A stretch of 64,000 nt of DNA, from positions 54,808,001-54,872,000 of the forward strand of contig OZ024750.1 of assembly GCA_964016885.1 (NCBI GenBank). The letters are read 5' to 3'. Shown here in pieces: positions 5,045 to 60,421 of the stretch. How positions within the stretch are numbered: position 1 is the first letter of the stretch; every line of letters starts with the position of its first letter. Source of the DNA: Eledone cirrhosa (Eukaryota). The notes under the pieces were generated by a model. The model searched no databases. It saw nothing but the letters and a program-made list of their open reading frames with translations, and was not told where the DNA came from. The position numbers and the translations under genes were made by a program.

Positions 5045-6834
5045 TTTTTTAAAAAAAGTAAAACAATATTTGGCAATTTAGGTGGAAATTTTGGGTGCCT
5101 TTTGGTTTTGCACGTGTCACTAATTTCATCCCATTTGTCACCATCTGTGTGAATTAAACAAATGTAATGACCTCCTTATGTGGAACCTAATGTGTGAACA
5201 ATTGCTGATTGAAGTTGGAAATTGGTATAAAAAAACTGCTGACGTTTTGAACTGAAATTCAATAAATCACAATGTATTTGAGTTTCTTGACCACTGGTTA
5301 TGAGGAATCGGTTGATTGATACTACAAGGTAGTGCATTGTGGGTGGGAAATCTCTCCTGATGGTTGTTTTGTGCTCTGTATTGGTGGTGCAGGTGTCACA
5401 TTGTTTTATTATGGTGTCATTTGATATAAGTAAAGTACGGAACTGTTGAGGGCCTTGAATAGGATGCAATGTCAAGTCTGATTTAATTTCTGGTGTTTTG
5501 TGAGTTTCGAGTCCACATCCAGGTCTATGTGTGCAAGTACAAATTTGATCATTCAAACGTGGGCATTCATTTTCATGACTTTTAGTCCATCTTAGTGTTC
5601 CATTCACTTGAAATTGGAATATTTGCTGTGCATTTGGTGGAAAATGTGGGTAGATATTTTTCCAAAAATCATGGGCACATTGCTGAGCACCATCCTTAAA
5701 TCTCCCCCCAATTAATCTTCGCAGAATTGAAACATCCCGATCCCCTGGTGTGACAATATTTGCTATTTCCTGAACAACTGGACTGAGTAATTTGGTAGAC
5801 AACAAAGTTTCCCAAAGTTTGGGCAATAGCTTGAAGTGTGGAATTGGCAAAACAGGCATTTTCCTTATTTTGTAGTCTAATCATGGGAGTGAGCATGGAA
5901 ATTGTAGCTAATTTAAGTTTTTTGGTAGGAGGAGCATATTCAGAAGGGTTGTCCACATTCAACATTCGCCATGATCGTTTTTTTGGTATGCAAGATTCAG
6001 AAGCCATGCATGGTGGTTTATTTCTACATGGTCCAAGTGGAGGCAATTTTGTTGTAGAACGCAATTTGTTGTACTCTTCCCAAGCAGATTTGTCACACAT
6101 GATCAGGGTTCGTGGGTCAAAATCTATCAAATAGACATTGCAGAGTTTCCTAGCTCGTGAAAGTGCAACATAGGCCATTCCATCTGTGAACAACAGAGGA
6201 CCAAGATCAGCAATGACCCCATCAACACTTATTCCCTGTGATTTATGGATGGTGATGGCATAGGCAAGGCTTAGGGGGAACTGTTTTCGTGTCACATACA
6301 CACCAGGAGAGATTTCATAGTCTGCAGTCACCTTTTCTATTGAAATGTCATTGCCTATCATGTGATCAAATTCCACAATGATTTGTCCCATTTTCCCATC
6401 TTTTCCATTGACCATGCTTTGCACTGTTCCCATGACACCATTACATAGCCCCTTCACCAAATTAATGTTTCGTCTCAGCATTACTCTGGCCCCAACTCCA
6501 ACTTGCAATTCAGTCTCAAGTTCAGCAGTGTCTGATGCCTTTTTTGGTTTGGAAAATTTGTTTGACTTTGACTTTTTTTACAACCTTTCTGGCGCATTCT
6601 TGAGTCCTCAGCAATAACTACAACTGTACTGATGTTGGCATGCTTAAGCATTTCCTTGTTGAATTCATCTACAGATTCATTGACAGGCAAAATACAGACA
6701 AATTTTTGACTAGCTAATGTGCAAAGTTGCATTAGTTTCTCAGTTGCCTCTCTCATTGTTGCCCTGCGATCTGGGAATAGGCAATATTCACTCAAAGTCT
6801 TGATGTCCAATTTGATGGGGGACCAAATTTGCAC
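5045..6834 (-). pseudogene. PIF1-family helicase C-terminal half fused to a USP (peptidase C19) domain; frameshifts and a stop
   Basis: VGARVMLRRN..GLCNG, QFPLSLAYAITIHKSQG, AYVALSR; in-frame Cys box LQNKENACFANSTLQ; QQCAHDF; His box AIVHTLGST*GGHYICL..W.EISD. Confidence 0.85.
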
Positions 6835-8291: not shown

Positions 8292-9228
8292 AATTCTATA
8301 TCCAGAGAAATTCTTTTTTTTTTTTTAATTCTTTTTTTTTTTGTTTTTATCAAACTATGCTCGCAATAATAATTTTCAATCCAAAAGAGAATTTTTTTGT
8401 TAAACGTCGAAAAAACTCTTTCTTTTGTGTAGTATTTTTGTGTTCGTCTGTATGCGTGAGTTACTTGTGTTACCATGAAAGTTATAACAGAAATATTGTG
8501 TAGGTTGCGTGCTTCAACAAATGGAATATTATGAATTTTATGGACTTACGCTAAGCGAGTCTAGAAACCCGATTCGAATATTCCAAATGTTAAGCCACTC
8601 CACATTTCCGTTAAAACGACTGGCGAATTCAAATAGGCTGCGTTTTCATACTTAATCGTCGAGGGTCACAAATTTAGTGTAGATATATTGTCACCAATTT
8701 GGTTTAGGTATAAATTCGAATTTAGCGGAGAAGAATATTTAGAGAGTTGTTGTGTTGTTGCCACGAGGAACCAGGTTTGGTAGAAAGATACGATAGGAAT
8801 ATCGACAACGAATTTTAGCTTGTTTTTACATTATTTATTAATAAAGGTTAAGAAGTGAATTAAGATGGCATGCCAAGAATAATGAAATAATTCAATTAAG
8901 ATTACAAGAGAAAATACGGGCGACTGGCTGAAGGCGTTTGGTCAGGCTCGTAGGTAATGTTTTGTCGTTACATATTGTTTGTGCTTACGGAGCAAAAGAA
9001 CAAGTGTTGTTTATCTTAACACGGTCTAGTGATAGCGTCCTCAAATCTTTGCGGGCTATTTCTCCCTCCGAACGTGTAGGGATACATCCTCTTCTACTGG
9101 CGCTGATTGGCTGAGCTGAGCCAAATCACGCACAGAGAATGTATGTGAGCCCGCGGAATGTAGGTCACTACACCTGGTATATGAAGAGCAACCGATACGA
9201 TCGGTCTTGAAGAAGAATGAAGAATGAA

Positions 9229-9850
9229 ACCTTATCATCTCTGATAAAATGCCCATTGAATCACTGAAAATCGGATGCATGGAATTAATCATAAAATGCA
9301 CCTATGAATCGGAAGCCATCACATATTTCAATGGATATAGGGAGTTGTTCACACTGGAAGACCATCACTTCATTTGTGACTTCATCAGTTATCTCCACGA
9401 TTATCTCAGACACCCAATGCCATTGATGAGAGGTGATCCAATGTGTGAGCATGTAACTAATCTTATAGAAGATGTTATCGACCACCTGGCTTTTAGTGAC
9501 ATTTGACTGATTTGACTGATAATGATGTATTTTTAAAAAGTATGTGTACATTCTTGTTACTATTTTAAGGCAATGCAAGCAACAACTATTTAATAAAATG
9601 TGTGCATTACTAGTATGATGACATTTTATTAAGTCACAAAATTAGTCAGTCAACCATAGAACAAGTATCAGGTGGCAAAAACATTGGCAAAAATTTGTGT
9701 CAATTTAAGATTTCCAACATTGTTCAAATGAATCATATGTGGTTTGAAGCCAGATTTGTCAAATTTTGACCAATTTTCAATGTTGTGAAGATTGGGCAAG
9801 TTCAATTTTTGAATCATTTCTTTCATGCAGTAATTAAACTTTTCCAAACG
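9229..9850 (+). repeat. About 620-bp direct repeat of 3765-4386
   Basis: Near-identical sequence, including most of the 119-aa ORF and the SGNH 3' end. Confidence 0.95.
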
Positions 9851-10095
9851 TCGTCATTTCTGGATTACCTCCCCTAGCGTCACGCTTACTACTCACTCAC
9901 TTGAACACGAGATTTATCAGCAAACTTTGATTATAAACTTTTTCCCGCTGGACCAAATTTCTAGATTTTTAAGCCAAAAGATGCGTAATGATCTACTGTT
10001 CATGCTCATATAAGTTTTATCTCAGTTAAATAAAGTAGAGCCGCGCTGTACTGTCGTCGTCCCTTTAGGACTAAACGGACTACCGCCCGTTTAGG

Positions 10096-11525
10096 ATATG
10101 GCGACGTACACAAATATACATATACACACATACATACATACATATATGGCGACGTACACAAATATACATATACACACATACATATATATATGGCGACGTA
10201 CACAAATATACACACATACATACAGATATGGCGACGTACACAAATATACATATACACATACATACACACATATATGGCGACATACACAAATATACATATA
10301 CACACATACACACATACATACATATATCGCGACATAAACAAATATACATATACACACATACATACTGCATATATGGCGACGTACACAAATATACATATAC
10401 AAAGTGGACGTGTAGGCGCCACGAAGAAGCACCCAGCACTCACTGTAAATGAGGTTGGTGTTAGGAAGGGCATCCAGCTGTAGAAATCAAGCCAGATCAG
10501 TTCCTGTATGAGCAAGGCATGGTCAGCCGACCAGACACTGCCCACAACAGGACAACCCGTCTAACCCATGCTAGCGTGGAAGAACGGACGTAAAACGGTG
10601 ATGATAATGATGATGATGATGACATACATACATACATATATGGCGACGTACACAAATATACATATACACATACATACATATATATATGGCGACGTACACA
10701 AATATACATATACACACATACATACATATATGACGACGTACACAAATATACATACACACATACATACATATATGGCGACGTACACAAATATACATATACA
10801 CACATACATACATATATGGCGACGTACACAAATATACATACACACATACATACATATATGGCGACGTACACAAATATACATATACACATACATACATATA
10901 TGGCGACGTACACAAATATACATATACACACATACATACATACATACATATATGGCGACGTACACAAATATACATATACACACATACATGCATATATATA
11001 TGGCGACGTATACAAATATACATATACACACATACATACATATATGGCGACGTACACAAATATACATACACACACATACATACATATATGGCGACGTACA
11101 CAAATATACATACACACATACATACATATATGGCGACGTACACAAATACACACATACACACATACATACATATATGGCGACGTACACAAATATACATATA
11201 CACACATACATACATATATGGCGACGTACACAAATATACATATACACACATACATACATATATGGCAACGTACACAAATATACATATACACAAATACATA
11301 CATGCATATATGGAGACGTACACAAATATACATATACACACATACATACATACATATATGGCAACGTACACAAATATACATATACACACATACATACATA
11401 TATGGCGACGTACACAAATATACATATACACACATACATGGCGACGTACACAAATATACATATACACACATATACACACATACATACATACATATATGGC
11501 GACGTACACAAATATACATATACAT
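10096..11525. repeat. Minisatellite, about 42-50-bp unit with core atatggcgacgtacacaaatatac
   Basis: Many tandem units; explains the spurious Y/I/H/T-rich ORFs. Confidence 0.97.
10402..10622 (+). mobile_element. 5'-truncated RTE LINE 3' end with (GAT)n tail
   Basis: Near-identical to 46843-47058. Confidence 0.92.
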
Positions 11526-11936
11526 GGTGGCTGCCAACTCGTTTTCGAGTACGGCCACTACTTTATATCCATGTAGGAGAACCCCTACCGATGCGCTGAA
11601 CGAGTGTGACTTTTTAGTCCAGCCAGCGACTTGAAAACTCTGGTACAAACACTACACTTGGGACAATTATTGACACATAGTGCCGGGCCCATGGTACCAT
11701 GTGACGACAAGTGCAGACTGATCTCCAGATATAAACCAATGTCTGTGCAGTGAAGCTTTTATAGTGAGCAAAGGCACTGTACAAAGCCAGTCCCACTCTC
11801 TTAACCAAGATGATATTTACCAAAAAGTAGAACAAGTCAACATCATTGGATATCATCAGAGTTACAGGTGTTATATCAGAGTTTTCCTTCTAGAATTCTG
11901 CCTTGACAAAGGCTAAGGGGTCATCTCTCCCGGTGA

Positions 11937-12131
11937 TTTTGGATGGCCATTGACTCTTAAGAGCACCTTTGCCCTTTGACAGGTTTTGTTTTTAGTCCTG
12001 CAGGATGTCCAAAGTCACCCTCCTCACCAAGAAAACTTGGTGGGGTTGCCAGTTTAGTAGCCAACGACCCGACCATGAGACAGGGTGTACTAGGATACAT
12101 GTTACCAGTAGCACCAACTGGTGACCTGACA
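11937..12131 (-). mobile_element. Segment homologous to the 5' region (30375-30586) of the minus-strand RTE
   Basis: High identity by eye; diverges abruptly at about 11937. Confidence 0.8.
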
Positions 12132-12144
12132 TATATATATATAT

Positions 12145-13100
12145 ATATGAAAAAGTTTGTCCTCATCAGTGGCCATCCAACCGTCGTAGGCATTTCGTCG
12201 CATTAAAGGCCATATACCTCAGGTTGGTGCGAGCAACGGCTAAAATAAAGTCGTTGGGACACGTAAATAAAGGGGACGCTAGGGTAAACAAACAAAATGG
12301 TTTAAGCAGTACCCTAGCGTCCCCTTTATTTACGTGTCCCAACGACTTTTTTTTAGCCGTTGCTCGCACCAACCTGAGATATATGGCCTTTAATGCGACG
12401 AAATGCCTACGACGGTTGGATGGCCACTGATGAGGACAAACTTTTTCATATGTAACCCATTTGCAGCGCCGCAGCTCCATTATTATCATATTTACACATA
12501 TATTTTTTCCTCCGCTGCCACCAGTCTGTTTCGTTCTTTGTGTCTTTACCCTTTCTAGCAGTCTCTCTGTTAGCCTCTTCCTCACCTTTCACTCACTCAC
12601 TCTCTGTCACCACCTCTCCTCCTCCCCTTTCTTCCCGTTTGACCTGTCCGTAATCCTTTTCTCGCGGACACTTGGCCAAGCCGGTATGAATTTTTTTCTC
12701 TCTCGTCTGCAACTTCACAGAACTTATGTTTACCGAATTCGCAGACCAGACCCCTTCTTCCTCCCGTTAGACCTGTGCGAAATTCCTTCCTTGCTCACAT
12801 TACAACCAGGTTTGATGGTCTTTATTCTCTCGTTCACGATTCCACCAAATTTATATTCATAGAAATCTGGGACTTGTTTCCTTCTTCATCACTTTCTGCT
12901 GCTTAAACCATTTTGTTTGTTTACCCTAGCGTCCCCTTTATTTACGTGTCCCAACGACTTTTTTTTAGCCGTTGCTCGCACCAACCTGAGGTATATGGCC
13001 TCTAATGCGACGAAATGCCTACGACGGTTGGATGGCCACTGATGAGGACAAACTTTTTCATATGTAACCCATTTGCAGCGCCGCAGCTCCATCATTATCA
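12145..13100 (+). mobile_element. Non-autonomous element with Penelope-type architecture: inverted partial repeat plus two direct ~190-bp repeats, flanked by (TA)n
   Basis: 12145-12286 reverse-complements 12310-12451; 12310-12490 is repeated at 12922-13100. Confidence 0.7.
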
Positions 13101-13489
13101 TATATATATATATACGCACATATATTTATAAATATATACTCTTATGTATTGCATTAAATATTCTACACGTGTATATATATATATTTATATGAATATATAT
13201 ATATACTCTTATGTGTATACGTCTGAAAATGTATATATGTATGTAAATATATTTTTATACATACATGTATACATATAGATGGTCAGTTATGCACATAAAA
13301 TATTTCATTTATTTATATACATACAATGAATTATTAACTTATTAAAAACTACAATGTATGATTAAATTATGTTTGATTATAATGTCTATGACAGAAAATT
13401 ATTATAATTGATCTAAATTAATGTTAAAATAAATTTTTAAAAATCTAAATAAACAGTTTATTTGTCAACATAACCGTCGTGATAATATT

Positions 13490-13632
13490 GGTTCCTTATA
13501 TAGGCATAAGACCAACAATTTTTGGGGAGGGGAAAGTAGATTAAATCAACACCAGTGCATTACTGGTATTTTATTTTATCGACCCCGTAAAGATGAAAGG
13601 CAAATTAAACCTCGGAGGGATTTGAACTCAGA
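13490..13632 (-). mobile_element. Nin-domain SINE fragment
   Basis: Minus strand gagttcaaatcc B-box then gcctttcatc...ggggtcgataaaat..taccag; relatives at 31268-31380 and 37615-37806. Confidence 0.75.
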
Positions 13633-15777
13633 TCAGACCGTCGTCATATTACAAATAAAAAGAGAGGGAGTCGGGCTGCTAACTGTAAGGTTCTTGTCTT
13701 TAGGTGGGGGTGTTGTGTTGGTCGTTGGGTAGGAGCTGTTGGCCGATGGGTTGAGCATGTAGTATCACTGAACCACGATCAAGGCTGCGATAGTGATGCT
13801 TCTGTGGTTTCATATTTCAACACAGGCAAGATGATCTATAATATGAACAGCTAAATTGTGGAGAAATTCATTCAATTACTACAGGTCTGACCCTTAGTCT
13901 GAATTATATCTACTTATGTAGGTTTAACTTTACCAAGATTACCGAATCACTGCTCGAACTTGGGGCTTCTGAAACTAACTTATTGTGTTAGCAGATGTTG
14001 GATGAGAATCTTCAATAAAAATGTGGAGAAGCAAGGCATTAGATCGTTCTTTTTGTTTCTATTTGAATTGATTTTTTCATGTTATCTTTTCTTTTGCTTG
14101 TAAATACAACCCACGTATTGTAAGAGTGGTTGAGTTACTGCAGTGTTAATGCTTCAGTGTGTGGAAGCCAAGTTAACAGAGCAGAAATCTTGTTGAGAGA
14201 TGTACTGGTACCAACCACATAATTATGGAGATAACGTTCAGATGAATAATAAATTGTGGAATGTCCTAGCTTTCGTCCTGGTAAGGCTAAGTAGGCTTTT
14301 TGCTGTGTTACCTTAGGTTTGTAAGGACTATTTAAGTCAATATTTCAGTGATTGATTTCTTGTTTTTGGTGGGTAGTCACACGTGGTCGTATGCGTTGCT
14401 TATGTTGACTTATGTGGAGCCCTGAAAATCCCGTCCGGCAGGGACGGCTGCCTAGACAGAATTTTGAGATGTATCAAAAACAGTGGAGGAGAAATAAATA
14501 TAATACATTCACGAAACACGTGTTACACGTAATTACGAATAAAATGTCAAAATGAAACTTGGGTCACTCAATCTTGATATATATTTCATTAGGGAACTAA
14601 CCCTCGTTTAGTACTCTATTGTCTTTAAACTGCGGCTTAAAGCAGCCCACCAAACAATCCCTTTCTAATTCAAGAAGGTATGTGACCTGAAAGAAATTTG
14701 GCTGCTATTTCCAACAGGTCAAGTAACCACATAGAGGTCTTCACTCCTTCTCTCGAAACAAACATATTTGTTATTGTTAGTGGTTTTAGCCAAAAAGTTG
14801 TTGTTGAAATCAGTAATTTTTTACAGGAAAGTTAGAATTAACTAATAAACTTGATACAATTGAGTGAGGGAAGATTTTAGCTGGCCAACATCGAAAACAC
14901 TTTCTAAATGAGACAGAACACTTTGTAGAATAATTATTTCAATGATTCTTTTCTAACTTTTCCTTTCAACTTTCTCTTTCATTTCACTTGTTTTTCCTCC
15001 TTTTCTTTAACCTTCTTATTAGATTATATGTTGTCTTATATTTTCACTTGGACTTTATACTTCTCTGTGTTATATATATATGGTTCCATGTGAAACACCA
15101 TAACTAGAATACAATTGAACAACAAACAAACGATTTGTTTCGATTATAAAGAATTTGTCGTTACAACGAATTATCTTTATACCACCTGAATTTCGTTATA
15201 ACGGAATTTCACTGTATATATATTATGTGTGCGTGCGTGTATATATATATATATAAATATATATAGCAAGAAGGAGACTGATATTCTGGCGGTTTTCGAG
15301 CTTATTCTGAAGTCTGTACAAAAGACTTGCTGTGTTGATTGTTTAACTAAACGTAAGAGTTTAAAGAAAGAAAAATCCTTAATGGATAATTTCACTGCTA
15401 TTTCTAGCAGGGTGAGAGACTACGTAGATATATAATTGATATTTTACTGAGTGATACTTTCTGATTTACCATCAATTAAATACGATCGGAACTGTCTGAA
15501 TGTATTAAATTATATCAGGGAATTTTAACTAATGACACCGGTAAGGGAGTTAAATCATTTCCAATGACACCGAGTACTTGCTGTCTTCAATGTAACTTTA
15601 ATTAATCTAATATATATATATACACAATATATATATTAATTAATATAATATATATATATATACACAATTTTAATTCCCCGACATCAGTCTTACACTGTCA
15701 TATCTATTCTTACTTTACAATTGTGTCTACTAAGAGTTCCATTACAATCTATAGTAGTAAAACTACTATTTCACCAG

Positions 15778-16062
15778 AACATCTGCTATCAGTCATTTAT
15801 AGACAATATATATATTTTAGACCACATATCAACCTAATATATATATATTTCCTATCAAATCTGTAGCTAAAGACATAAAGTCAGCCTCACTACTTCATTC
15901 TGACAAGATATCAATTTATGACTAAAGATGAAGATACACCAACGTTAATGTCGTGAAATAAAGCTGATAACATTGAAACTTCTAATTTGATAACAAAGAG
16001 ATTATTTCTTTGGTTGTTTAGTAAAACCTAACAACACAACACATTGATTATATGTGAAGGAG
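15778..16062 (+). other. Putative non-coding exon of ZNF gene 1 (donor GAG|GTAAGT at 16063; acceptor uncertain)
   Basis: Donor and flanks conserved in three paralogs (16063, 32506, 63441). Confidence 0.55.
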
Positions 16063-16386
16063 GTAAGTTGACAAAGATTTACTTAATGTCTATATTAATG
16101 TACGTAAATAATATAATTATGTGAAGCCTACAACGATACCAGATTCCACTGTTACATGTGATATAAAATATATTGTTATCATGACTGTCTTTATTATTTA
16201 AATAATTGCTGGCCTTGTGCCTAAAGTAGAAACAATTATTTAAATACCTCCGTTTATATTTCAACCACTGGAACAACCTCAAACAAGAAACAGTTGTCAC
16301 ACCCTCAGTCAACATTTTTAATGTAAAAAAACAAAATATATGTTATGAGTGTATATAGGTAGATGTATGTTGTGTGTGTATATATA

Positions 16387-16970
16387 CAGTAATCCCCCGC
16401 TATATCGCGGTTCACTTTTCGCGGTCCCGTTACATCGCGGATATTTCTTTGGAACGTATCTAATTTCCTATCGCGGTAATCCTCGCCACATCGCAGATTA
16501 TTCGTTAGAACATATCTATTTACTTATCGCGGTACGTCTGAATAAAAAGTGTTTAAAATTTAAACTTATTAAATAAGTTTCAATGTTATTAAAGTGTATA
16601 TCGTAAGGAAGGGACATCTTAAGGCTTTAATTATGAACAAATGTTTATATTTTTCATTCCATTACTGTTTTACTGATTGTGTTTTGCTCTAATCTACTAC
16701 AAACCCTTCATAGATTGACGGGAGATGTCCAGTGTATTACCAAGTGGCTACCGTAGCTGGCAATAGTCCTCATTGGTAACTAGTGGTACGATAGTTGGTG
16801 GTAGTTTCTATACGATCGTTACTGGTTGTTTTTGGTGTTTAAATACAAAAGTGTGTTTTAATTAGTTTATATCTACTTAAAGCATGTATGAGAGGTATTT
16901 TAAGGCTTAAACTATGAAAACAACGGTTGTCTTTATGGTCTCTCTATATCACGGTAGTTTCTGGAACGTA
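16387..16970 (+). mobile_element. Tigger/pogo-like MITE remnant
   Basis: TA|CAGTAATCCCCCGCTATATCGCGG terminus with repeated atcgcgg; paralog at 36670-37215. Confidence 0.6.
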
Positions 16971-16973
16971 TCC

Positions 16974-17158
16974 TGGCTTAGTGGTTAGAGGATTGGGCTT
17001 ACAATTAAAAGGTGGTGAGTTCGTTTCTCGGGCCGGGTGATGTGTTGTTTCGTTGAGCAAGACACTCTATTTTACGTTGCTCCAGTTTACTCAGCTGTAG
17101 AAATGAGTTGTGATGTTACTGGTGCCAAACTGTATCGGCCATAGCCTTTCCCTTGGAC
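16974..17158 (+). mobile_element. tRNA-derived SINE
   Basis: A box TGGCTTAGTGG, B box gagttcgtttc, central ttgagcaagacact; paralog at 37222-37400. Confidence 0.75.
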
Positions 17159-17515: not shown

Positions 17516-20485
17516 ATCATCATCACTGTTTTACGTCCCTTCTTCCACGGTAGTATGGGTTAGACAGGTTGTCCTGTTGTGGGCAGTGCCAGGTAGGGTG
17601 ACCTTGTCTTGCTCAGATGGGAACCGATTTTGGCTTGATTTTTACAGCTGGATGCCCTTTGTTTTAATGAGTTTATATCTACTTAAAGCATGTATGAGAG
17701 GTATTTTAAGGCTTAAACTATGAAAACAACGGTTGTCTTTATGGTCTCTCTATATCACGGTAGTTTCTGGAACGTATCCTCACAGTGAGTGATGGGTGCT
17801 ATTTTGTTGTGACACCTCCGTGGCCACTTTACAGTGGGAGGGGGTAGGGGCATATTGTCTATATGCTTCAGTTTCGGCTTGTACCCGTGGGAAGTCTGGT
17901 CTTCTATATTACTGTGTGAAACCAGAGGTCACGGTCCGGTGTCATCGCCTTCGGGTGGTGCAATTGAGTAAGGTCAGCTTTCATCACCTCATCCCAGGTC
18001 TTCTTGGGTTTCCCCACTCCATGGCTTCCATTGACTGCTAGTGCTCTGCATCTGTTTATGTAGCTTTCATCCTTCATACACATCACATGTCCATACCAAC
18101 ACAACCTCCTCCCCTTCACACAGCATTTGATTCCTCTTATGCTCAGTCTGTCTTTCAATTTGTTAATGCTTTACCGTTCATGTATATTAATATTACACAT
18201 CCATCGGAGCATGCAAGCGTCGTTTCTTTCTAATCTACGCAAGTCTTCTACACATAGCGCCCAGGTCTCACTACCATTGTTTGGTGGTGCTTGTTTCTTT
18301 AGTTCTGCCATAGATTCAGCTATAAGTGTAAGATCATCCGCATATAGGAGTTCCTATGGGCATCCGGTCTTAAACTCTTCTGTTATAGCCTGCAATACTA
18401 TAATAAACAGGAGAGGGGTAAGAACAGAGCCCTGGTGGACACCGACCTGTATGCTAAATTCCTCGCTATAGTCATTGTTAACTCTTTGCTGACTGCTCCC
18501 CTATACATGGCATGTACAGCTTTCACAAGCCAATAATCTACTCCTAGTTTTCTAAGAGGCCACCAGATTATAGCAAGGGGCACTCTGTCGAAGACTTTTT
18601 CCAGATCGACAAAAGCCAGGTGGAGCGGCTTGCTTTTAGCTAGGTACTTTTCCTGTAACTGCCTCAGAAGGAAGAGGGCATCAGTGGTGCTTTTTCCTGG
18701 CACAAACCCAAACTGCATCTCACCTAGTTTTACCCAGTCCCTGATCAACTGTGCTATGACTCTTTCCATTACTTTCATAACCTGGTCCATCAGCGTTATA
18801 CCTCTATAGTTTATTCTATCTAGTGCATCTACTTTAACCTTGTAGCAGTTGACAATGATGCTGTTGCACCAATCCTTTGGTATGACACCCACTAGTATTC
18901 CCTGATTAACAATATATGGTTATTACTTTATCTACCCATTTCTCAGTTAATAGTATACCTACACCACCCATCCCATTGTCATTTCCCACCCAGAAAAGTT
19001 TATAGCACTAACTTTCGCCTACAAGGACTCTATCGGACTCTCCTCTCCATCTAGTCTCTTGCCCAGAGCATACATCAATATCCTTTCACTCTAGCATGTC
19101 TATAATTTCTCCTTCCCTTCCTTCCATTGTGCTTATGTTGATGCTGCCAACTAAGAGTTTTGGACATTTGCCATCATTTGTGGGAGAGGGTGAATTTTTG
19201 CGGGGGAGTGTGTATGCTTCCTGTCTCTGAATTAAAGCTTCGTATGGGTGCTTGGTAACTCGCGGATTTATATTGATTTATTTATTCGGGGTTGTTCCAT
19301 TTATCCTTCACTCCTCCATACATAACAGTAAACAAGAATTCTTTGGTGCAGGGCTAGAAGGACAGTAGTAGTAATGGCAGAGTTTGTTTGGGTTGGTAAG
19401 GGCTAGAAGGACAGTAGTAGCAATGGCAGAGTTTGTTGGGGCTGGTAAGGGCTAGAAGCACAGTAGTAGTAATGGCAGAGTTTGTTGGGGCTAGTAAGGG
19501 CTAGAAGGACAGTAGTAGTAATGGCAGAGTTTGTTGGGGCTAGAAGGACAGTAGTAGCAATGGCAGAGTTTGTTGGGGCTGGTAAGGGCTAGAAGGACAG
19601 TAGTAGCAATGGCAGAGTTTGTTGGGGCTGGTAAGGGCTAGAAGCACAGTAGTAGTAATGGCAGAGTTTGTTGGGGCTGGTAAGGTCTAGAAGGACTAGT
19701 AGTAATGGCAGAGTTTTGGGGGCTGGTAAGGTCTAGAAGGACAGTAGTAGTAATGGCAGAGTTTGTTGGGGCTGGTAAGGGCTAGAAGGACAGTAGTAGT
19801 AATGGCAGAGTTTGTTGGAGCTGGTAAGGTCTAGAAGGACTAGTAGTAATGGCAGAGTTTGTTGGGGCTGGTAAGGTCTAGAAGGACAGTAGTAGTAATG
19901 GCAGAGTTTGTTGGGGCTGGTAAGGGCTAGAAGGACAGTAGTAGTAATGGCAGAGTTTGTTGGGGCTGGTAAGGGCTAGAAGGACAGTAGTAGTAATGGC
20001 AGAGTTTGTTGGGGCTGGTAAGGGCTAGGAGGACAGTAGTAATAATGGCAGAGTTTGTTGGGAATAGTAATGGGTAAGGACATGTTGCTGAGGTTTGATT
20101 GGTCAAATAGCCTATGGTGGTGAGTGGGAAATTGTGAGATAGGTAGCCATCATGACATATATCATCACAGCAGATTCGGGGGAAATAAGCAGATATAAGT
20201 AGACATATTAGACAAGGCAAGTATGCAAGAACTTCAAAGATGGTCACCTAGCTTTGAAAACACCGAAATGAATGAGTGAGAGAAAGGGGAGGTAATGGCG
20301 GGGGTTAGGGATGAGTTTGTAGAGAAAGACATAATGTCCAACATGGTTTATATCAAAAACAAGGTCGAAGTATATACGTTGTGGAAACAAGTGAATGATA
20401 ATAATAATAATGTAAACAGAACATTTTGAAATTGGGGAAGAGAGATAGCTGTAGAATAGAAATAATCTATGGATGTCTTGGATAT
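17516..20485 (-). mobile_element. Internally deleted, decayed RTE LINE
   Basis: RT fragments 17904-18892 (AFVDLEKVFDRVP) homologous to the intact copy; 3' tail at 17516; 5' UTR-like region beyond 19100. Confidence 0.85.
19351..20062. repeat. 49-bp minisatellite (about 14 copies)
   Basis: gggctagaaggacagtagtagtaatggcagagtttgttggggctggtaa. Confidence 0.95.
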
Positions 20486-21190: not shown

Positions 21191-22139
21191 GTTGCTTTCA
21201 GCAGGTTCACTTTCAAGGATTGCCACTGTTACTCTATATTACATGTCTCTAATTGATCTTCCTTATTGTCAAAGGCATCAAGTAATAGGCTTTTAAATTT
21301 GTCACTGGCTATGGGGTCCTTTAACTTCCATAATCTTCTACTCAAGGTAGTCTACAATTTACCAATATAGAAATATAAAATTTCCACTGTTAAATCTATC
21401 TCTGCTTCTAAAGTATTCTGTATTATCTCATACTGTTTCTTTCTTATTTCAGAATATCAGATGACATTGGGATAAATTATTATTTTCAATCTTGGATACA
21501 TCACCTCTATTTATCATCATTTTAAGACTAAAACATTCTAAGCAGAACTTATATAACACTGTTTATATAAATCTCTCGTCGTATTACTGTGAAATATTTC
21601 CTCAAAACTGAGTTTATTTTCTTCACTATCAGATGATTTTGTATTTTAACTAAACGTGGATGAAAAAGAAGTTTGTATTATCTTCAGATATTAACTGAAA
21701 TATAGTTGAGGGAAATATAGAAGAAGAAATATTTTATAAGAAATATAATATAAAAAAATTACAAGGAAAACATCTGTATATTCTGTTGAAGAAGGAATAA
21801 TTATGGAAAATAATTGACAAAGAAGATTTAATGCGAAACACAATCTAAAGTGTTTAGTATTCCTGGTGAGATGACGAAGGTTAGAGAAGAGAAGCCATAT
21901 CACTGTGATATCTGGTAAATCATTTAATAAACTTAGTACCTTTAACTACTCACAAAGTTATACATACAGAAGATAAGCCATATTGTGATATCTGTGGTAA
22001 ATCATTCTCTCGAAGTAGTGACTTAACTTCTCACATACGTACCCATACAGGAGATAAGCCATATCACTGTGATATCTGTAGTAAATCATTCTCTCTCAGC
22101 AGTCACTTAACTGATCCCAAACCTACCCATACAGGAGGC

Positions 22140-22964
22140 ATGCCATATCACTGTGATATCTGTGGTAAATCATTCTCTGGTAGTAGTTCTTTAATTAGGC
22201 ATAAACGTATACATACAGGAGAGAAACCATATCAATGCGATATCTGTGGTAAATCATTCTCTAATAGTAGTACCTTAACTTCTCACATACATACCCATAC
22301 AGGTGAGAAACCATATCACTGCAATATCTGTGGTAAATCATTCTCTCAAAATAGTCACGTAACTGATCACAAACGTATACATACAGGAGACAAGCCATAT
22401 CACTGTGATATCTGTGGTACATCATTCTCTCAAAGTAGTCACTTAACTTCCCACAAACGTATACATACAGGAGACAAGCCATATCACTGTGATATCTGTG
22501 GTAAATCATACTCTGATAGTAGTCACTTAACTAGACACAAACGTACACATACGGGAGACAAGCCATATCACTGTGATATCTGTGGTAAATCATTCTCTCT
22601 AAGTGGTACCTTAACTAGCCACAAATGTACCCATACAGGAGAGAAGCCATATCACTGTGATATCTGTGGTAAATCATTCTCTCTAAGTAGTACCTTAACT
22701 AGCCACAAACGTACCCATACAGGAGAGAAGCCATATCACTGTGATATCTGTGGTAAATCATTCTCTGAAAGTAGATCCTTATTTAAGCATAAACGTATAC
22801 ATACAGGAGACAAGCCATATCACTGTGATATCTGTGGTATATCATTCTCTCAAAGTAGTAACTTAACTGCACATAAACGTACCCATACAGGAGACAAGCC
22901 ATATCACTGTGATATCTGTGGTAAATCGTTCTCTTCTAAAGAGTACTTAATGCAACACAATTAG
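22140..22964 (+). CDS. Tandem C2H2 zinc-finger protein (9 complete fingers, 1 partial); ancestral N-terminus disrupted, so possibly a pseudogene
   Basis: CxxC-x12-HxxxH with TGEKP/TGDKP linkers; acceptor at 21451-52; AATAAA at ~23025; ancestral ATG 21803 followed by TGA 21815. Confidence 0.85.
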
Positions 22965-42678: not shown

Positions 42679-45600
42679 AGGTATTTTAGCCTACATATTG
42701 TCGTTAATATTATGATGTTCCCTGCTGTATTAGCGTTAAATTTTCCCTGCTGTATTAGCGATAAATTTTCGAGGGTTTCTCTTAGTAGCTTTTTCATGTC
42801 GTTAATATTATGATGTTCCCTGCTGTATTAGCGTTAAATTTTCCCTGCTGTATTAGCGATAAATTTTCGAGGGTTTCTCTTAGTAGCTTTTTTCATGACG
42901 TTATTATTGTTAATTTTACTGATGTAGTATTAACTTATTAACTTGGATATTTACCATGCGGTATTCTAATCCTATTGTATCTCTCTCAGTTATTTACCAT
43001 GCGACCCTCAGTTCCTACCCCCCCCCCCCTCTCTATGCACTTCTTTAAGGCTTACTACCCTGTCTTTAACCTAATTCATTCAATCTGAAAATATTGAAGA
43101 GATAAGACACTTTGCCATTCTTCTCTGCTAAAATGTACCACTAGAGTTGATTCAAATTTTCCCAGCCAGCCATCCACCTAATCTACGAAGGTATTTTAGC
43201 CTACATATTGTCGTTAATATTATGATGTTCCCTGCTGTATTAGCGTTAAATTTTCCCTGCTGTATTAGCGATAAATTTTCGAGGGTTTCTCTTAGTAGCT
43301 TTTTTCATGACGTTATTATTGTTAATTTTACTGATGTAGTATTAACTTGGATATTTACCATGCGACCCTCAGTTCCTACCTCACAATTTCCCTCCCCCCC
43401 ACCCCCACTCACCACCATAGTCTATTCGACCAATCAAACCTAGCATGCCATTTCCACTGCTGCTGCTGCTACTACCTGCCTAACTAACTCTCTCCTCCTC
43501 TGGCGCATCCCAACACACCCTGCCATTACCCCACCACCACTGTCCTTCTAGCCCTCAATTTTCCCACCGTTATGGATGGATGAGCTGGGAATACACGAGC
43601 AACTCTGAATCAATAGATGAAATATGAATCTGCGAGCTACCAAGCACCCACGTGAAGCGCCAACCCAGAGACCCTCCCCTACGAGTGTCGACAAATGCCC
43701 AAAACTCCGAGTTGGTACCATCAATGTAGGCTCAATGAAAGGAAGAGCAGGAGAAATCGTAGAAATGCTAGAGCGAAAGGAAGTTGATGTATGCTGTGTG
43801 CAAGAGACTAGATGGAGAGGAGGGTCTGCTAGAGTCCTTGTAGGAAAAAGCCAGTGCTACAAATTTTTCTGGGTGGGAAATGACGATGGGATGGGTGGTG
43901 TAGGTATACTATTAGCTGACAAGTGGGTAGATAAAGTAATCTCAGTGTACAGGGTAAATGCAAGAATCATTAAACTCAGACTAGTCCTGAATAAGACAAT
44001 TACCACAATAATATCAGCTTACGCACCCCAATCGGGGCTGCCAGACGAACTTAAGGATAGGTTTTACGAGTCCCTAATACACACTACTGCTCTAACAGAC
44101 GACAAGGACTTCCTAATCATTGCAGGAGATTTTAACGGACACGTAGGTAAACACTGCGCCGGCTTCAATAGAGTACATGGAGGCCATGGAGTTGGCACAA
44201 GGAATGAGGAAGGATTCAGACTTCTAGAATTCTGCGACGCCAATGACATGTCGATATGTAACACAAACTTTAAAAAACCCGACAACCACCTGATCACCTA
44301 TAGATCAGGGGAGCACTCTAGTCAGTTAGATTTTATCCTCATCAGAGGACGTGACAGATGGACGGTCGTAAACACAAAAGCCTTCCCTAGTGAGGAATGT
44401 ACATCCCAACATAGCTTAGTTGTCAGCGACCTCACGGTCAGAACTAGACGAGCCCTGAAACAGAGGCCAACCTGGAGAAGAAAGATCTGGAAGCTGAAAG
44501 TCCCCTCAACCAGTAACAGATTTAAAGATATTTTACTCAACGCCTACGACAGTAAAGAAGAACAGATAGAGACATTTAACGTAGAAGAGAACTGGGAGTT
44601 CCTAAAAAATAACTTACTAGAGGCGACGGATGAGGTTTGTGGCTGGAGTAAGACCTCAAGCAGGAGGAGAGTGACTTGGTGGTGGAACAATAAGGTAGAT
44701 GAAGCAGTCAAGGCCAAGAGACAGGCATGGAAAGAATGGAAGAACGGGGGGAGCAGGGTACATTACATAGAGACCAAGAGGGAAGCTAGGCGACAAGTAT
44801 ACTTAGCTAGGAGGGAAGCAGAGGATAGAAAATTCAAGCATGTTTTACAACGTGAGGACCAGAAACAGGAGGTATTCAAGATTGCGAGGCAGTGTGTCAG
44901 AGATAGTTGTGATGTCATTGGAGAGAAGTGTATCCGGAATGATAAAGGTGAGCTTGCCCTCACAAGTGCTGAGAAGAAAGATGCATGGAAGAGTCATTAT
45001 GATAGATTACTAAATGAGGAGAATGCATGGGAAGAAGAGACCCTACCCCACGTAGACCCTATAGAGGGACCAGCAGTACAAGTCAGCGGCAGCGTAGTAA
45101 GTAAGGCAATCAGAGATATGAAGATAGGGAAGGCAACCGGTCCATCGGGTATAGCTGCCGAGATGCTGAAGGCATCTGGGTCTGTAGGTCACACTATAAC
45201 CACACGTATCGTTAACCAGGTAATACTAGAGGGGGCCATACCAAAAGATTGGTGCAGTAGCATCATTGTCAACTGCTACAAAGGTAAAGGCGATGCACTA
45301 GATAGAGGAAACTATAGAGGTATAAAGTTGATGGACCAGGTCATGAAAGTAACAGAAAGAGTTATAGCACAGCTGATTAGGGACCGGGTGAATATAGACG
45401 AGATGCAATTTGGGTTTGTTCCAGGGAAAGGCACCACTGATGCGCTCTTCCTTGTGAGGCAATTACAGGAAAAGTACCTAGCTAAAAGTAAGCCACTCTA
45501 CTTGGCATTTGTCGACCTTGAGAAAGCCTTTGACAGAGTTCCACGTGCAGTAATCTGGTGGGCTCTTAGAAAACTAGGAGTAGATGAATGGCTTGTGAAA

Positions 45601-47058
45601 GCGGTACAAGCCATGTATAGGGGAGCAGTCAGCAAAGTTAGGATTGGCAATGAGTATAGCGAGGAATTTAGCGTACAGGTTGGGGTCCACCAGGGCTCTG
45701 TTCTTAGCCCTCTCCTGTTCATCATAGTCCTGCAGGCAATAACGGAGGAGTTTAAGACCGGATGCCCATGGGAACTCCTGTATGCTGATGACCTCGCACT
45801 CATAGCTGAATCTATGGTAGAACTAGAGAATAAATTCCAAACCTGGAAGCAGGGACTAGAGAGAAAGGGCCTCAAAGTCAACATGACAAAGACTAAGGTC
45901 CTTATAAGTAGACGAGAAAACAGAACCCAGATCCCCTCAGGGAAATGGCCTTGCTCAGTATGTAGGAAAGGTGTAGGTAGGAACTCCATTCTCTGCCCCA
46001 AATGCAAACAATGGGTACACAAGAGATGTAGCGGGATCTCAGGAAGCTTAATTAAGAATGTAGGATTCACATGCAGCAGCTGTGCTGAAACAGCAAGCAA
46101 ACAGCCACAGGAAACAAGTACCACCAATCTCTGGGAGGGCCCTGTAGAAACAGTAGACAGCTTCTGCTACCTAGGTGACCGAATTAGCAACGGAGGTGGG
46201 TGCTCAGAAAGTACAATAACTAGGGTAAGAACGGGATGGAAGAAGTTTAGGGAACTACTACCACTGCTAGCTGCAAAAGGCTTCTCCCTCAGAATGAAAG
46301 GCAGACTGTATGATGCGTGTATCCGAACAGCGATGTTGCATGGTAGTGAGACCTGGGCGCTGAAGGTGGAAGACTTACGTAGATTAGAGAGAAACGAAGC
46401 CTGCATGCTCCGATGGATGTGTAACAGTAATATACGTGAACGACAAAGCATAAATGAATTGAGAGAGAGACTGAGCATAAGAGGAATCAAATGCTGCGTG
46501 CAGGAGAGGCGGTTACGCTGGTATGGACATGTGATGCGTATGAAGGATGACAGCTGCATAAAAAGGTGCAGAGCACTAGAAGTTGATGGAAACCGCGGAG
46601 TGGGGAGACCCAAGATGACTTGGGATGAGGTGATAAAAGCCGACCTTACCCAACTACACCTCTCAAAGTCAATGACACACGACCGTGACTTCTGGCGTCA
46701 CGCAGTAATACAGGGTACCCGACCTCCCATGGGTACATGCTGAAGCATATAAACAATATGCCCCCCCCCCGCCCCCCCCCCCCCCCCCACCGCAAGGTGG
46801 TCGTGGAGGTGCCACGGCAAAAAAGCACCCAGCCCACACTGTAAAGTGGACGTGTAGGCGCCACGAAAAAGCACCCAGCACTCACTGTAAATGAGGTTGG
46901 TGTTAGGAAGGGCATCCAGCTGTAGAAATCAAGCCAGATCAGTTCCTGTATGAGCAAGGCATGGTCAGCCGACCAGACACTGCCCACAACAGGACAACCC
47001 GTCTAACCCATGCTAGCGTGGAAGAACGGACGTAAAACGGTGATGATGATGATGATGA
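42679..47058 (+). mobile_element. Full-length RTE LINE with tandemly duplicated 5' UTR, inserted in a TA-rich microsatellite
   Basis: Intact ORF, 3' UTR, (GAT)n tail. Confidence 0.93.
43624..46743 (+). CDS. RTE ORF: AP endonuclease, reverse transcriptase and PHD-like Cys/His finger
   Basis: CVQETRW, AGDFNGH, SQLDFIL, SQHSLV; AFVDLEKAFD, GVHQGS, LYADD; CSVC..CPKC..WVHKRC..CSSC. Confidence 0.95.
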   Translation: MNLRATKHPREAPTQRPSPTSVDKCPKLRVGTINVGSMKGRAGEIVEMLERKEVDVCCVQETRWRGGSARVLVGKSQCYKFFWVGNDDGMGGVGILLADKWVDKVISVYRVNARIIKLRLVLNKTITTIISAYAPQSGLPDELKDRFYESLIHTTALTDDKDFLIIAGDFNGHVGKHCAGFNRVHGGHGVGTRNEEGFRLLEFCDANDMSICNTNFKKPDNHLITYRSGEHSSQLDFILIRGRDRWTVVNTKAFPSEECTSQHSLVVSDLTVRTRRALKQRPTWRRKIWKLKVPSTSNRFKDILLNAYDSKEEQIETFNVEENWEFLKNNLLEATDEVCGWSKTSSRRRVTWWWNNKVDEAVKAKRQAWKEWKNGGSRVHYIETKREARRQVYLARREAEDRKFKHVLQREDQKQEVFKIARQCVRDSCDVIGEKCIRNDKGELALTSAEKKDAWKSHYDRLLNEENAWEEETLPHVDPIEGPAVQVSGSVVSKAIRDMKIGKATGPSGIAAEMLKASGSVGHTITTRIVNQVILEGAIPKDWCSSIIVNCYKGKGDALDRGNYRGIKLMDQVMKVTERVIAQLIRDRVNIDEMQFGFVPGKGTTDALFLVRQLQEKYLAKSKPLYLAFVDLEKAFDRVPRAVIWWALRKLGVDEWLVKAVQAMYRGAVSKVRIGNEYSEEFSVQVGVHQGSVLSPLLFIIVLQAITEEFKTGCPWELLYADDLALIAESMVELENKFQTWKQGLERKGLKVNMTKTKVLISRRENRTQIPSGKWPCSVCRKGVGRNSILCPKCKQWVHKRCSGISGSLIKNVGFTCSSCAETASKQPQETSTTNLWEGPVETVDSFCYLGDRISNGGGCSESTITRVRTGWKKFRELLPLLAAKGFSLRMKGRLYDACIRTAMLHGSETWALKVEDLRRLERNEACMLRWMCNSNIRERQSINELRERLSIRGIKCCVQERRLRWYGHVMRMKDDSCIKRCRALEVDGNRGVGRPKMTWDEVIKADLTQLHLSKSMTHDRDFWRHAVIQGTRPPMGTC

Positions 47059-48156: not shown

Positions 48157-48927
<771 letters not shown>

Positions 48928-54219: not shown

Positions 54220-57200
54220 ATGCCTCGAAAAAGAAAGAGTAACATTGGAAAAAAAACAAAAAATGCTTTTGCTTTGCGTTCTTTGCGCGCAAGCTAAACA
54301 GAAGAACAATGTGTGCTACGGCGTGCTCGCAATGCTGCTTCTACCTCGATCGCCAGAGCATTACAAACAACTGAACAAGCAGAACTCCAGCGTGCTCACA
54401 ATGCTGCCTCTACTTTGAACATCAGAGCATTACAGAAAGCTGAACAAGCAGAACTCCGGCGTGCTCGCAATGCTGCTTCTAATTCCAATAGCCGTGCTTT
54501 AGAGACTGTTGACCAAAGGGCAACAAGGCTTGCGGCTGATTCTCAACGGAAAATGCGTACTTATGTCTTTCCGAGGGATTCTTCCTGTTACTGGTCTAAG
54601 AAAGGTTTTCAATACAACCCCCAAGAGGACTACGCATCCCATCCGCATATCATCATTGGTAGTATGTCAACTGTTTGCGTCCATTGTAATGCAATGAGGT
54701 GGCCAGATGAATCTACCGGTATATGTTGCTCCAATGGAACGGTTACATTGCCTTATTTACAAGTCGGTGCCGAACCTTTGAATTCTCTGCTGCTTGGAGA
54801 CCACCCTGATTCTAAACACTTTTTCAGAAATATAAGAGCCTACAATTCGGCTTTCCAAATGACAAGCTTTGGTCATACAACAATAAAAAGATGGGAATTA
54901 TATGCCCACATTTAAAGTGCAAAGCCAAATTTACCATCAAATAGGATCACTTATTCCACAAGATGGCAAAGAACACAGTTTTCTCCAGATCTACTTTATG
55001 GGCAACGGACCTGAAGAAATTGCACGAAGGGCTTCAGTTGCTAAAGGAACGACACCTTCTCTTCTGCAGCCCCTTCAATATATGCTTCATTCCATAAACC
55101 CGTACATCACCATTTTCAAAACTGCTTTACAACGTAGAGATGCTAACAACAATCAATACAAGGTTGTCATTCAAAATGACCGTGCTCCACCAGGGCAGCA
55201 TCAGGGTTGCTTTAATAGACCCCAAACCGATGAAGTTGCGGTGATTATAACACGTCCTAATGAGAGCGCTTCAAACCGTGATATTGTTATTGAATGGCAG
55301 GACTCGCATCTTCAAAAAATAAATGAACTTCATCCCGCATATGATGCTCTCCAGTATCCATTGCTGTTCCCCTTTGGCAACGATGGCTACCGCATTGATT
55401 TGCAAAAGTGTAATCCTGTAAGTTTAATGCATCTTACACCAGGGAAAACCATTTCACAAATGGAATTTTATGCATTTAGACTTATGTTTCGCAAAAACGA
55501 CGTCAACATTCTGCATAGAACACGGATGCTCCTCAATCAATACTGTGTAGACATATTTGCTAAGATTGACACTGAACGCCTCCAATGGATAAGACATCAT
55601 CAAAAGGAACTGCGTTCAGAAGAATATGGCAATCTACGTGACGAAGTAAACCGAAATGATCAGGCTAATGCTTCGGATGTTGGGCTTTCTGTCATTCTCC
55701 CATCATCATACACTGGAGGCCCCCGTTACATGCATGAAAAAATGCAGGATGCTCTGACCTATGTCCGCCATTGTGGCCGTCCCGATCTTTTTATCACCTT
55801 TACATGCAATCCAAAATGGTTGGACATCCAGTCTCATTTACTTCATGGCCAAAATCCTTCACACAGGCATGATATCACATCCAGAGTGTTTCACATGAAG
55901 CTTATAAAAATGATGGATGTTTTAAAATACGGACAACTTTTTGGACCAGTAAGGTGCTTCATGTACACAGTAGAATGGCAGAAGAGAGGACTCCCACATG
56001 CCCATATTCTCATTTGGCTTCAAAAGAAACTTATGTCAACTGATGTTGATTCCACTATCAGTGCTGAACTGCCAAATCCCCAAGAAGACCCTTCGCTATT
56101 TCAAATCATAAAAGCCAACATGATACATGGCCCGTGTGGCCACCTAAATCCAAAATCTGCATGTATGGACAATAGGAGATGTACAAAGTGTTACCCACGT
56201 AAACTCATCAATGAAACCAAAACTGGTGATGATGGCTACCCTTCATACCGTCGCCGAGCACCGCAGGAGGGTGGACATATGGCAAATATAACAATGCTTG
56301 GTGGTCAAGATTTCACTATTGACAACCGATGGGTTGTACCACATAACAAGGTGCTATGTAAAATGTTTTCAGCCCATATTAACGTTGAATTCTGCAACTC
56401 CGTCAAAGCAATCCAATACATCTGCAAGTATGTCCATAAGGGAGCTGATCGAGCAGTTGTTGAGTTGGCTAAAAGCGATAACCCTGATGCTGCCAGAGAT
56501 GAAGTCACGTGTTTTCAAACTGGACGCTACATCTCTTCTAACGAGGGATTTTGGCGCATATTCGGTTTTCCGATCCATGAAGGTGAACCTGCAGTTATTC
56601 ATCTCAGCGTTCATTTGGAGAATGGTCAACGGGTGTATTTTAACCAAGAAAATATGCTTGACTATGCAAGACAACCTCGAAGAACGACCCTTACCGGGTT
56701 CTTTGAACTTTGTACTTCAGACTCTTTTGCCAGAACACTTCTTTATGCAGAGTTGCCTACATTCTACACGTGGAATAAATCTTCCCGCTGTTGGCAAAGA
56801 AGAAAGCGAGGACGCATTTCACAAAGGGATGCTTTGATGCGCGAGTCTGATGCCCTCTCAAGAGTGTACACAGTTCACCCGCTCAATTCAGAATATTTTC
56901 ACCTTCGTCTTCTATTGCACGTTATCAAAGGTCCGACTTCCTTTGAAGACCTCCGTACCGTCAATGGCCATATTTGGTCAACATTTAAAGAGGCCTGCTC
57001 CAAATTAGGTCTTCTCGACAACGATGACCACTATGACCACGCCCTCCATGAAGCATCAATGTTGCAGTCACCAATTGCTCTTCGTAAGCTTTTCGCCGTT
57101 ATGCTGGTATACTGCAGTCTTGGGAATCCACAGTCTTTCTGGGATAAATATCGTGACAGCATGTGCTTGGACATCCTAATGCAATCTCGCTTTGCGTCCA

Positions 57201-58777: not shown

Positions 58778-58783
58778 TTTATC

Positions 58784-60158: not shown

Positions 60159-60421
60159 GTTTGTCTTTCGGTTATTAATAAAAAAAATTACACATTGTTC
60201 AACCGACACGGCTAACGATACATTTCTCTATGTTCACATTTTAATGACACATATCTGTAAATAAAACTTGCTCTTTTTGAATACCGTCTCATTTTTTTTA
60301 TTGAAAGAGTTGATCAGGTAAAATTATCCTCCAAGTTAAACATACAACACGGAAATTGACCATTAACATTGCAGCCTTACCAAGAACTGACACCGTCCAA
60401 TGGACGGGGGTCATTTGCTAG

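Follow-up and report, generated by a model that had tools for sequence, protein, structure and literature searches.

Introduction

Eckert et al. 2023 (PMC10085705), in the sections of the paper available to us, name six ways of ordering the blocks of a hammerhead ribozyme, the order site-GAAA-CUGANGA being their type SGC. According to the same sections, type SGC is known only from metatranscriptomes, its natural members cleave in cis, and its linkers measure 0-44 nt, some forms having no linker at the joint comparable to the one considered below. Non-circular hammerhead permutations in general are reported there from environmental sequences and, weakly, from one bacterium, and the SGC search pattern demands at least two stem II pairs beyond the G-C pair. 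A search of full-text literature, for the most part from outside subscription journals, brought up no account that places an SGC hammerhead in a eukaryotic genome or a Penelope-type element (PLE), or that combines it with a kink-turn. The same search returned the term 'type-SGC' from one paper only, and one 2026 paper, in its accessible part, gives Eckert et al. a single-sentence citation.

Two groups of mobile elements are also close to the one described here. Non-LTR retrozymes and non-autonomous PLE derivatives (PMC7229834; bioRxiv 10.64898/2026.07.22.740005) are, in the available portions of these sources, defined by and searched with type I hammerheads, and the 2026 preprint (bioRxiv 10.64898/2026.07.22.740005) there ties animal retrozymes to PLEs with type I models only. 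Naiad PLEs target (TA)n and are without canonical hammerheads in the accessible sections of Craig et al. 2021 (PMC8557442), where eight Naiads are flagged with a 'half core' and a second half on either side at 35-50 nt. The tail of PLEs has been tied to two internal reverse-transcription starts by Frangieh et al. (PMC11167929, accessible sections).

Results

A repeat with hammerhead blocks in site-GAAA-CUGAUGA order

The repeat was found in the 3.0-Gb genome of Eledone cirrhosa, within a stretch of 64,000 nt that was analysed as a whole and is called the window. Its surroundings there include C2H2 zinc-finger ORFs, APE-type retrotransposons and Helitrons, which point to an animal host. When the window was compared with itself, a direct repeat of 193 nt (97% identity) and an inverted arm of 168 nt (98% identity) were detected. 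The element is non-coding, and no ORF of at least 150 aa overlaps it. Its parts, in window coordinates, are:

12142-12309, minus strand: inverted, 5'-truncated arm, reaching the short fixed 3' end in (TA)n; its outermost bases overlap the microsatellite
12162-12261, minus strand: motif copy 3, intact; core 12232-12162, predicted cleavage between 12213 and 12212
12310-13099, plus strand: direct arm, 1.3 monomers of a 612-nt unit, without an ORF of at least 150 aa
12335-12438, plus strand: motif copy 1, in which one stem III pair is lost through G>A at 12379; cleavage is predicted after 12383
12947-12951, plus strand: helix Z, 5' strand UGUCC, partner 13046-13050; AUCC/GGAU in the D subfamilies, UUCCC/GGGAA in E
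12952-12974, plus strand: hairpin P0, missing from F and G and with compensation in B, C, D and E
12976-12980, plus strand: helix Y, 5' strand UCGCA, partner 13006-13010, immediately 5' of C11.1
12981-12986, plus strand: helix X, 5' strand CCAACC, partner 13026-13031
12987-12989, plus strand: predicted kink-turn, non-bulged strand (3n U, 2n G, 1n A); lost in subfamily J
12990-13001, plus strand: block S, with GGUAU (stem III, 5' strand), A17, after which cleavage is predicted (12995), and UGGCC(U) (stem I, 3' strand)
13006-13019, plus strand: helix Y 3' strand and block G, with C11.1, GAAA and stem III 3' strand
13020-13025, plus strand: predicted kink-turn, bulged strand (3-nt bulge, G1b, A2b; 3b = C)
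13026-13032, plus strand: helix X 3' strand, which covaries, and a 1-nt joint to stem I
13033-13050, plus strand: block C, with stem I 5' strand, CUGAUGA (13039-13045), G10.1 (13046) and helix Z 3' strand
13060-13099, plus strand: PLE-type tail of about 40 nt between the family's two fixed 3' ends, as in the accessible sections of PMC11167929

Copy 2 is made up of GGUAU (12990-12994), A17 (12995), UGGCC (12996-13000), C-GAAA (13011-13015), AUGCC (13015-13019), GGCCA (13034-13038) and CUGAUGA (13039-13045). Copy 1, 612 nt upstream, differs from it at 12379 and 12390. A preliminary description of this DNA had placed three hammerhead blocks in two direct copies 612 nt apart and in one inverted copy, and had given their order as non-circular. 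We find the blocks at those places, the inverted copy lying on the minus strand, and in all three copies their order is site - GAAA - CUGAUGA, that of type SGC and none of the circularly permuted orders of types I-III. The suggestion that this order was new does not hold, as it had already been published as type SGC by Eckert et al. 2023 (PMC10085705, available sections). Cleavage after 12995 and 12383, as proposed in that description, would fall at the correct position for a hammerhead core. The stem III mismatch reported for copy 1 is real, and a reservation about stem II stands, stem II consisting of one pair. Stem III had been drawn with six pairs; five are conserved and the sixth, an outer A-U pair (12989/13020), is not, since A is present in 55/55 of the representatives described below and its partner U in only 28/55.

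The absence of an ordinary hammerhead was likewise borne out: there is no GAAA within 345 nt after either plus-strand CUGAUGA, and the 87 Rfam matches over 9000-17000 (E up to 10) include none to a hammerhead model. A type I or III reading that draws on downstream bases is ruled out by the missing GAAA 3' of the core. HDV-like, twister and pistol readings were dropped, no corresponding match being present in Rfam. A pairing of 13001-13006 with the GGUUGG strand, preferred by the single-sequence minimum-free-energy structure, was also dropped, because the GGUUGG strand covaries with X. Fold energies calculated for single sequences do not stand out (z from -0.4 to -1.5), as expected of a pseudoknotted fold.

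Abundance and recovery of left-out blocks

The whole genome was searched with three disjoint patterns that fix the spacing between GAAA, a GA and CUGAYGA, and the reversed patterns were used as controls. The patterns yielded 21,965, 549 and 600 matches compared to 11, 19 and 11 for the reversed patterns, giving about 23,100 spaced-motif matches against 41. A pattern built from blocks S and G matched the genome 1158 times and its control not at all. The first 30 loci of each search were then inspected for the block that the search had omitted, block S being scored as UH plus complementary stems. Block S was present at the predicted place in 17/30 and 18/30 loci (null 0.21% and 0.25%), and block C in 27/30 (null 0.08%); the misses were chiefly truncations and point mutations, together with a few chance matches. 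Recovery at about 250 to more than 1000 times the null rate argues against a chance arrangement of the blocks. With a 179-nt query, 1848 first-look candidates came up; scoring covered 40 of them, and 30 sequences were examined. In a metagenome scan with at least 120 loci, 2 of the 121 matches listed (one sequence) passed loose stem filters and none was accepted; no metagenome profile match, among the matches listed, had E below 0.06, and no credible relative was found there.

Stems I and III and helix X covary around an invariant core

Profile matches (n = 276; 218 gapless, 18 gapped and 40 partial) were reduced, by removing duplicates and microsatellite-truncated frames, to 115 unique frames and then to 55 representatives. 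On these representatives, a 23-pair structure is paired in 87.5% of 1265 cells, compared to 32-47% when the partners are slid by 1-3 columns. Changes on both sides occur in 19/23 pairs, and 13/23 pairs are among the 37 highest-ranking of 2278 column pairs. Only 2/23 pairs, both in helix X, reach significance individually when set against a tree-aware null, a consequence of the small number of deep lineages.

Clustering of 188 near-full copies gave 10 clusters of at least two (177 copies) and 11 singletons, and the 10 subfamily majority lines have a lowest pairwise identity of 48%. C3, U4, G5, A6, G8, A9, G12, A13, A14, A15.1 and U16.1 are the same in 10/10 consensuses; N7 can be U or C, and H17 can be A or C. 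Outside the core, the S-G linker has a UAAUG that is likewise invariant in 10/10. Pairing in the consensuses extends to 60/60 cells of helix X, 49/50 of stem III and 58/60 of stem I (167/170 together), and to 44/50 of helix Y; in the 55 representatives, 90% of helix X cells and 82% of helix Y cells are paired. Helix Z is compensated from GUCC/GGAC through AUCC/GGAU to UUCCC/GGGAA, and in subfamily J the 1.1-2.1 pair changes from U-A to C-G. The family therefore has the CUGANGA core, GAAA and UH of a hammerhead, flanked by covarying stems I and III. Stem II is a single pair, canonical in 34/55 representatives in one register and, if either of two registers is allowed, in 135/154 copies; the D subfamilies reach only 39/56, with U-A or C.A at that position.

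Compared to the HRIMA-1/SGC variants (PMC10085705, as presented in the sections available to us), the motif has the same block order, core and stems I and III of 5-6 pairs, and here, too, one more base may stand between A9 and the G that follows. Stem II, in contrast, is multi-pair in those variants (about six pairs in the consensus line) and one pair here, and the S-G linker is about 3 nt there and 9 nt here. Their interaction helix pairs with a strand 3' of stem II, whereas here the strand before stem I pairs upstream of block S (helix X, via the predicted kink-turn) and the strand that follows CUGAUGA has its partner far upstream (helix Z). Y, Z and P0 are additional helices, and the motif resides in chromosomes, where its copies number tens of thousands. 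It was probably missed by the published SGC search because its stem II does not satisfy the pair requirement of that pattern. We infer that the motif behaves like a type-SGC hammerhead outside the HRIMA-1 and SGC-variant motifs. Judged from these alignments, the covarying hammerhead-like SGC fold is real and its architecture and setting are new.

A predicted kink-turn and the fold of a single copy

Between helix X and stem III, one strand reads N-G-A and the other carries a 3-nt bulge followed by G-A-N, which agrees with the kink-turn consensus of a 3-nt bulge, G1b.A1n and A2b.N2n; subfamily J is the exception. A1n, G1b and A2b are invariant in 10/10 subfamily consensuses, with the restriction that in families E-G G1b and A2b (not A1n) belonged to the search pattern. 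In the 55 representatives A1n is A in 55/55, G1b is kept in 52/55 and A2b in 54/55. The standard kink-turn, in the accessible sections of PMC5061560, has the same 3-nt bulge followed by G.A and A.G, and position 2n, here G, U or A, resembles standard k-turns and Kt-23 (PMC5061560); the -1 pair here is C-G in 8/10 consensuses. Unlike the kink-turns known from those sections (PMC5061560), the predicted one sits inside a ribozyme scaffold and is replaced by Watson-Crick pairs in subfamily J. Family A has C at 3b, which permits ion-induced kink-turn folding (PMC4382518, accessible part).

Subfamily J makes up most of the 600 matches of the third spaced pattern. Its three kink-turn pairs have turned Watson-Crick, leaving a plain bulge, and its S-G linker is mostly 2 nt longer. 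The kink-turn is thus common but dispensable, and subfamily J is a natural control set for the fold. At loci L370-L399 of this subfamily, H17 is U or C, there is no kink-turn, and in one branch stem III is preceded by an extra insertion.

RNA with a kink-turn is bent to about 50 degrees (PMC5061560, available sections). Such a bend, or the plain 3-nt bulge in one subfamily, could fold helix X back along stem III and bring the far end of X to stem I, so that the CUGAUGA strand would arrive via the 1-nt joint. Where stem II would otherwise be, Z, P0 and Y may meet the lone 10.1-11.1 pair in a four-way junction, with Y and Z substituting for the missing stem around that one pair. The preliminary description had required the CUGAUGA strand to come from the other repeat. 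With the bend, a second repeat is likely not needed, and the trans arrangement is not favoured: the kink-turn match is found in 10/10 consensuses, many insertions carry a single motif copy, and the published SGC forms cleave in cis. Covariation among genomic copies, proposed there as a check, came out as hoped, with stems I and III and helix X covarying around an invariant core in the 10 subfamily consensuses. The concern that UGGCCA is palindromic can be dropped, stem I of other subfamilies being non-palindromic and compensated. From the primary structure and its variation, we consider it likely that the motif is a monomeric ribozyme that cuts itself after AUA at 12995; the monomer geometry would follow by analogy from the kink-turn bend.

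Insertion anatomy of the family

The copies examined from the 179-nt query show variable 5' truncation and frequent inverted arms, may exceed one monomer in length, and end in (TA)n. Two fixed 3' ends, used by 10 and 28 of 38 family A arms, follow the predicted cut at about 64 and 104 nt in the 3' direction, and a two-end pattern is also seen in families C and D. Unit lengths are 612 nt in family A, 527 nt in B and 511 nt in C. The PLE-like architecture suspected at the outset is therefore seen in all its parts: 5' truncation, inversion, partial tandem, two 3' ends and a microsatellite target, the anatomy of a non-autonomous PLE derivative. By its organisation, the repeat appears to be a non-coding Penelope-type mobile element with a hammerhead core in its terminal part. 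Family A copies differ from their own majority by only 0.7% and have moved recently. Head-to-tail multimers of at least four monomers occur in some subfamilies (L069, L071; G000:C1:25329114-25331875).

Like the non-LTR retrozymes and non-autonomous PLE derivatives (PMC7229834; bioRxiv 10.64898/2026.07.22.740005, available portions), these are non-coding units of a few hundred nucleotides with one hammerhead each, occurring as monomers to multimers and linked to PLEs. They differ in that the hammerhead is of type SGC and not type I, that the copies are mostly dispersed as PLE-style inverted and partial-tandem insertions, and that they are known from genomic DNA alone.

Cleavage would cut tandem or read-through transcripts to units of about 510-610 nt. 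Two internal starts, about 64 and 104 nt 3' of the cut, could be used by a PLE reverse transcriptase acting in trans, which would insert the copies into (TA)n. Since genomic copies extend through the cut site, RNA that is uncut, multimeric or circular must often be the template. Among arms copying a whole monomer, 13/29 stop between -5 and +65 nt of the upstream predicted cut, with 14.6% expected from the body rate (p ~1e-4), in a zone chosen after family A had been seen; four arms apparently starting at, or at most 3 nt from, the cut are likely alignment-edge artefacts and were left out of the counts. This clustering fits RNA 5' ends made by cleavage, and stalling of the reverse transcriptase at a stable structure would explain it equally well.

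Naiad PLEs and the search for an autonomous partner

Naiad PLEs (PMC8557442, accessible sections) share with the element the (TA)n targets, inversions, partial tandems and tail; unlike them, the element has no ORF. In the part of the published material available to us (PMC8557442), the 3' ends of Naiad_Obim and Naiad_Ovul show, by eye, P0, Y, X, the kink-turn, a stem III of 5 pairs and a stem I of 6 pairs, with G-C at 10.1-11.1 and the same GAAA-to-CUGAUGA spacing as in the studied element. The 3' end of Naiad_Esco has X, III and I and lacks the kink-turn, again by eye, and two entries just ahead of Naiad_Obim in PMC8557442 end in a different motif. No core was seen by eye at the ends of Naiad_Omin and Naiad_Adux, as far as their sequences were available, and a Darwinula end gave no readable fold by eye. 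In the portion of the supplement at hand, Naiad_Mmer and the entry preceding it share an end motif with a possible resemblance to a twister ribozyme. Some Naiads may thus use other ribozyme classes. The motif studied here may have descended from the 3' end of Naiad-type PLEs.

In the genome, 0/50 GIY-YIG loci (30 + 20) held an autonomous PLE with the motif as its own terminal repeat. Two motif matches among the GIY-YIG loci are separate insertions. A motif beside a PLE ORF (L358) was rejected as a mere neighbour because a type I-like core of its own closes that PLE, and the PLE beside L064/L068 is likewise a neighbour. Naiad-like reverse transcriptase (RT) remnants amount to 3 pattern matches and 85 protein matches in the genome, most of the latter with stops, and a second RT-motif pattern gave 0 matches there. 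By eye, the decayed remnants resemble the Octopus Naiads in the accessible published material, a likeness that would suit an octopod host. Of the decayed Naiad-like loci, 0/43 read have an intact motif at their own 3' end, and two contain segments too decayed to score.

Of four other PLE families that were read, three have minimal type I-like cores, by eye. In young PLE families, at L168 (minus strand, both terminal repeats) and L186:5030-5070, type I-like cores deviate from CUGANGA by eye (UUGAAAA, UUGCAGA).

Discussion

The likely monomeric cleavage after 12995 has to be weighed against three other readings of the same fold or sequence. An SGC-type hammerhead might be active only as a dimer, with the CUGAUGA of one repeat completing the core of another, or as a domain-swapped dimer. 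Covariation is blind to pairing in cis or in trans, tandem dimers and multimers occur among the genomic copies, the joint from X to stem I is only 1 nt, and amphibian retrozyme hammerheads cleave better as dimers (PMC7229834, available portion). The kink-turn consensus, however, stands exactly where a single copy has to fold back, cleavage in cis is on record for SGC forms whose linkers span 0-44 nt (PMC10085705, available sections), stem I is non-palindromic outside family A, and many insertions hold a single motif; an obligatory dimer is in our opinion improbable. As for the possibility that the blocks came together by chance in an AT-rich repeat and were spread by descent, copies within a subfamily are indeed not independent, Rfam has no hammerhead match, and the single-sequence energies are unexceptional. 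The compensatory changes present in all six helices, between subfamilies that share as little as 48% identity yet keep the core invariant, and the rate at which omitted blocks were recovered weigh so heavily on the other side that we regard this explanation as largely refuted already and give it hardly any credence.

The fold could also be real and act chiefly as a signal at which the PLE reverse transcriptase binds or starts, its cleavage being very slow or dependent on the protein of the element. This would suit a stem II of a single weak pair, the invariance of the non-core UAAUG and the extension of genomic copies through the site; in the accessible sections of PMC11167929, moreover, an Anolis PLE hammerhead cleaved only with the protein of its element, and its cleavage was dispensable for insertion in vitro. 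All 11 catalytic-core bases are kept, though, and N7 and H17 vary exactly as hammerheads permit. A full core would be unnecessary for a pure binding signal, and its retention argues against one, making this an unlikely account. Self-cleavage of the single copy is the reading that we prefer.

About 23,000 motif matches in the genome of an animal make the non-circular hammerhead common, and they bring deep natural covariation and simple constructs for testing. By implication, ribozyme and retrozyme surveys that use type I/III descriptors miss whole families. The motif also offers a testable answer, at least in cephalopods, to the puzzle of Naiad PLEs that have 'half cores' and no canonical hammerheads. 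A natural kink-turn inside a hammerhead scaffold, if true, would represent an architecture not seen before and might act as a switch under protein control. We see about even chances for a broader hypothesis, in which hammerheads of non-circular permutation make up a major class of ribozymes in the genomes of one animal lineage or more. Under this hypothesis the kink-turn SGC fold with one-pair stem II would be the 'missing' ribozyme of cephalopod Naiad PLEs and their non-autonomous parasites, cleaving as a monomer and possibly gated by a host L7Ae-family protein where the kink-turn folds poorly alone.

Other features of the window

The element is inserted in the (TA)n end of another dispersed repeat (11525-12130), pieces of which recur in many loci. 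Upstream of this lies a minisatellite (10000-11520) of about 44-nt units with a GGCGACG core in an ATAC-rich unit, which gives spurious miRNA matches in Rfam. A 121-nt direct repeat (16854-16974 and 17660-17780, 806 nt apart) and a 49-nt tandem array (19302-20000) are also present. Tandem C2H2 zinc-finger ORFs occupy 21909-22964 and 48157-48927, and pieces of Helitron Rep/PIF1 helicase are found at 5176-6577 and 54887-60264. A 1040-aa APE-RT ORF at 43621-46743 has a PHD-finger match right after its RT domain.
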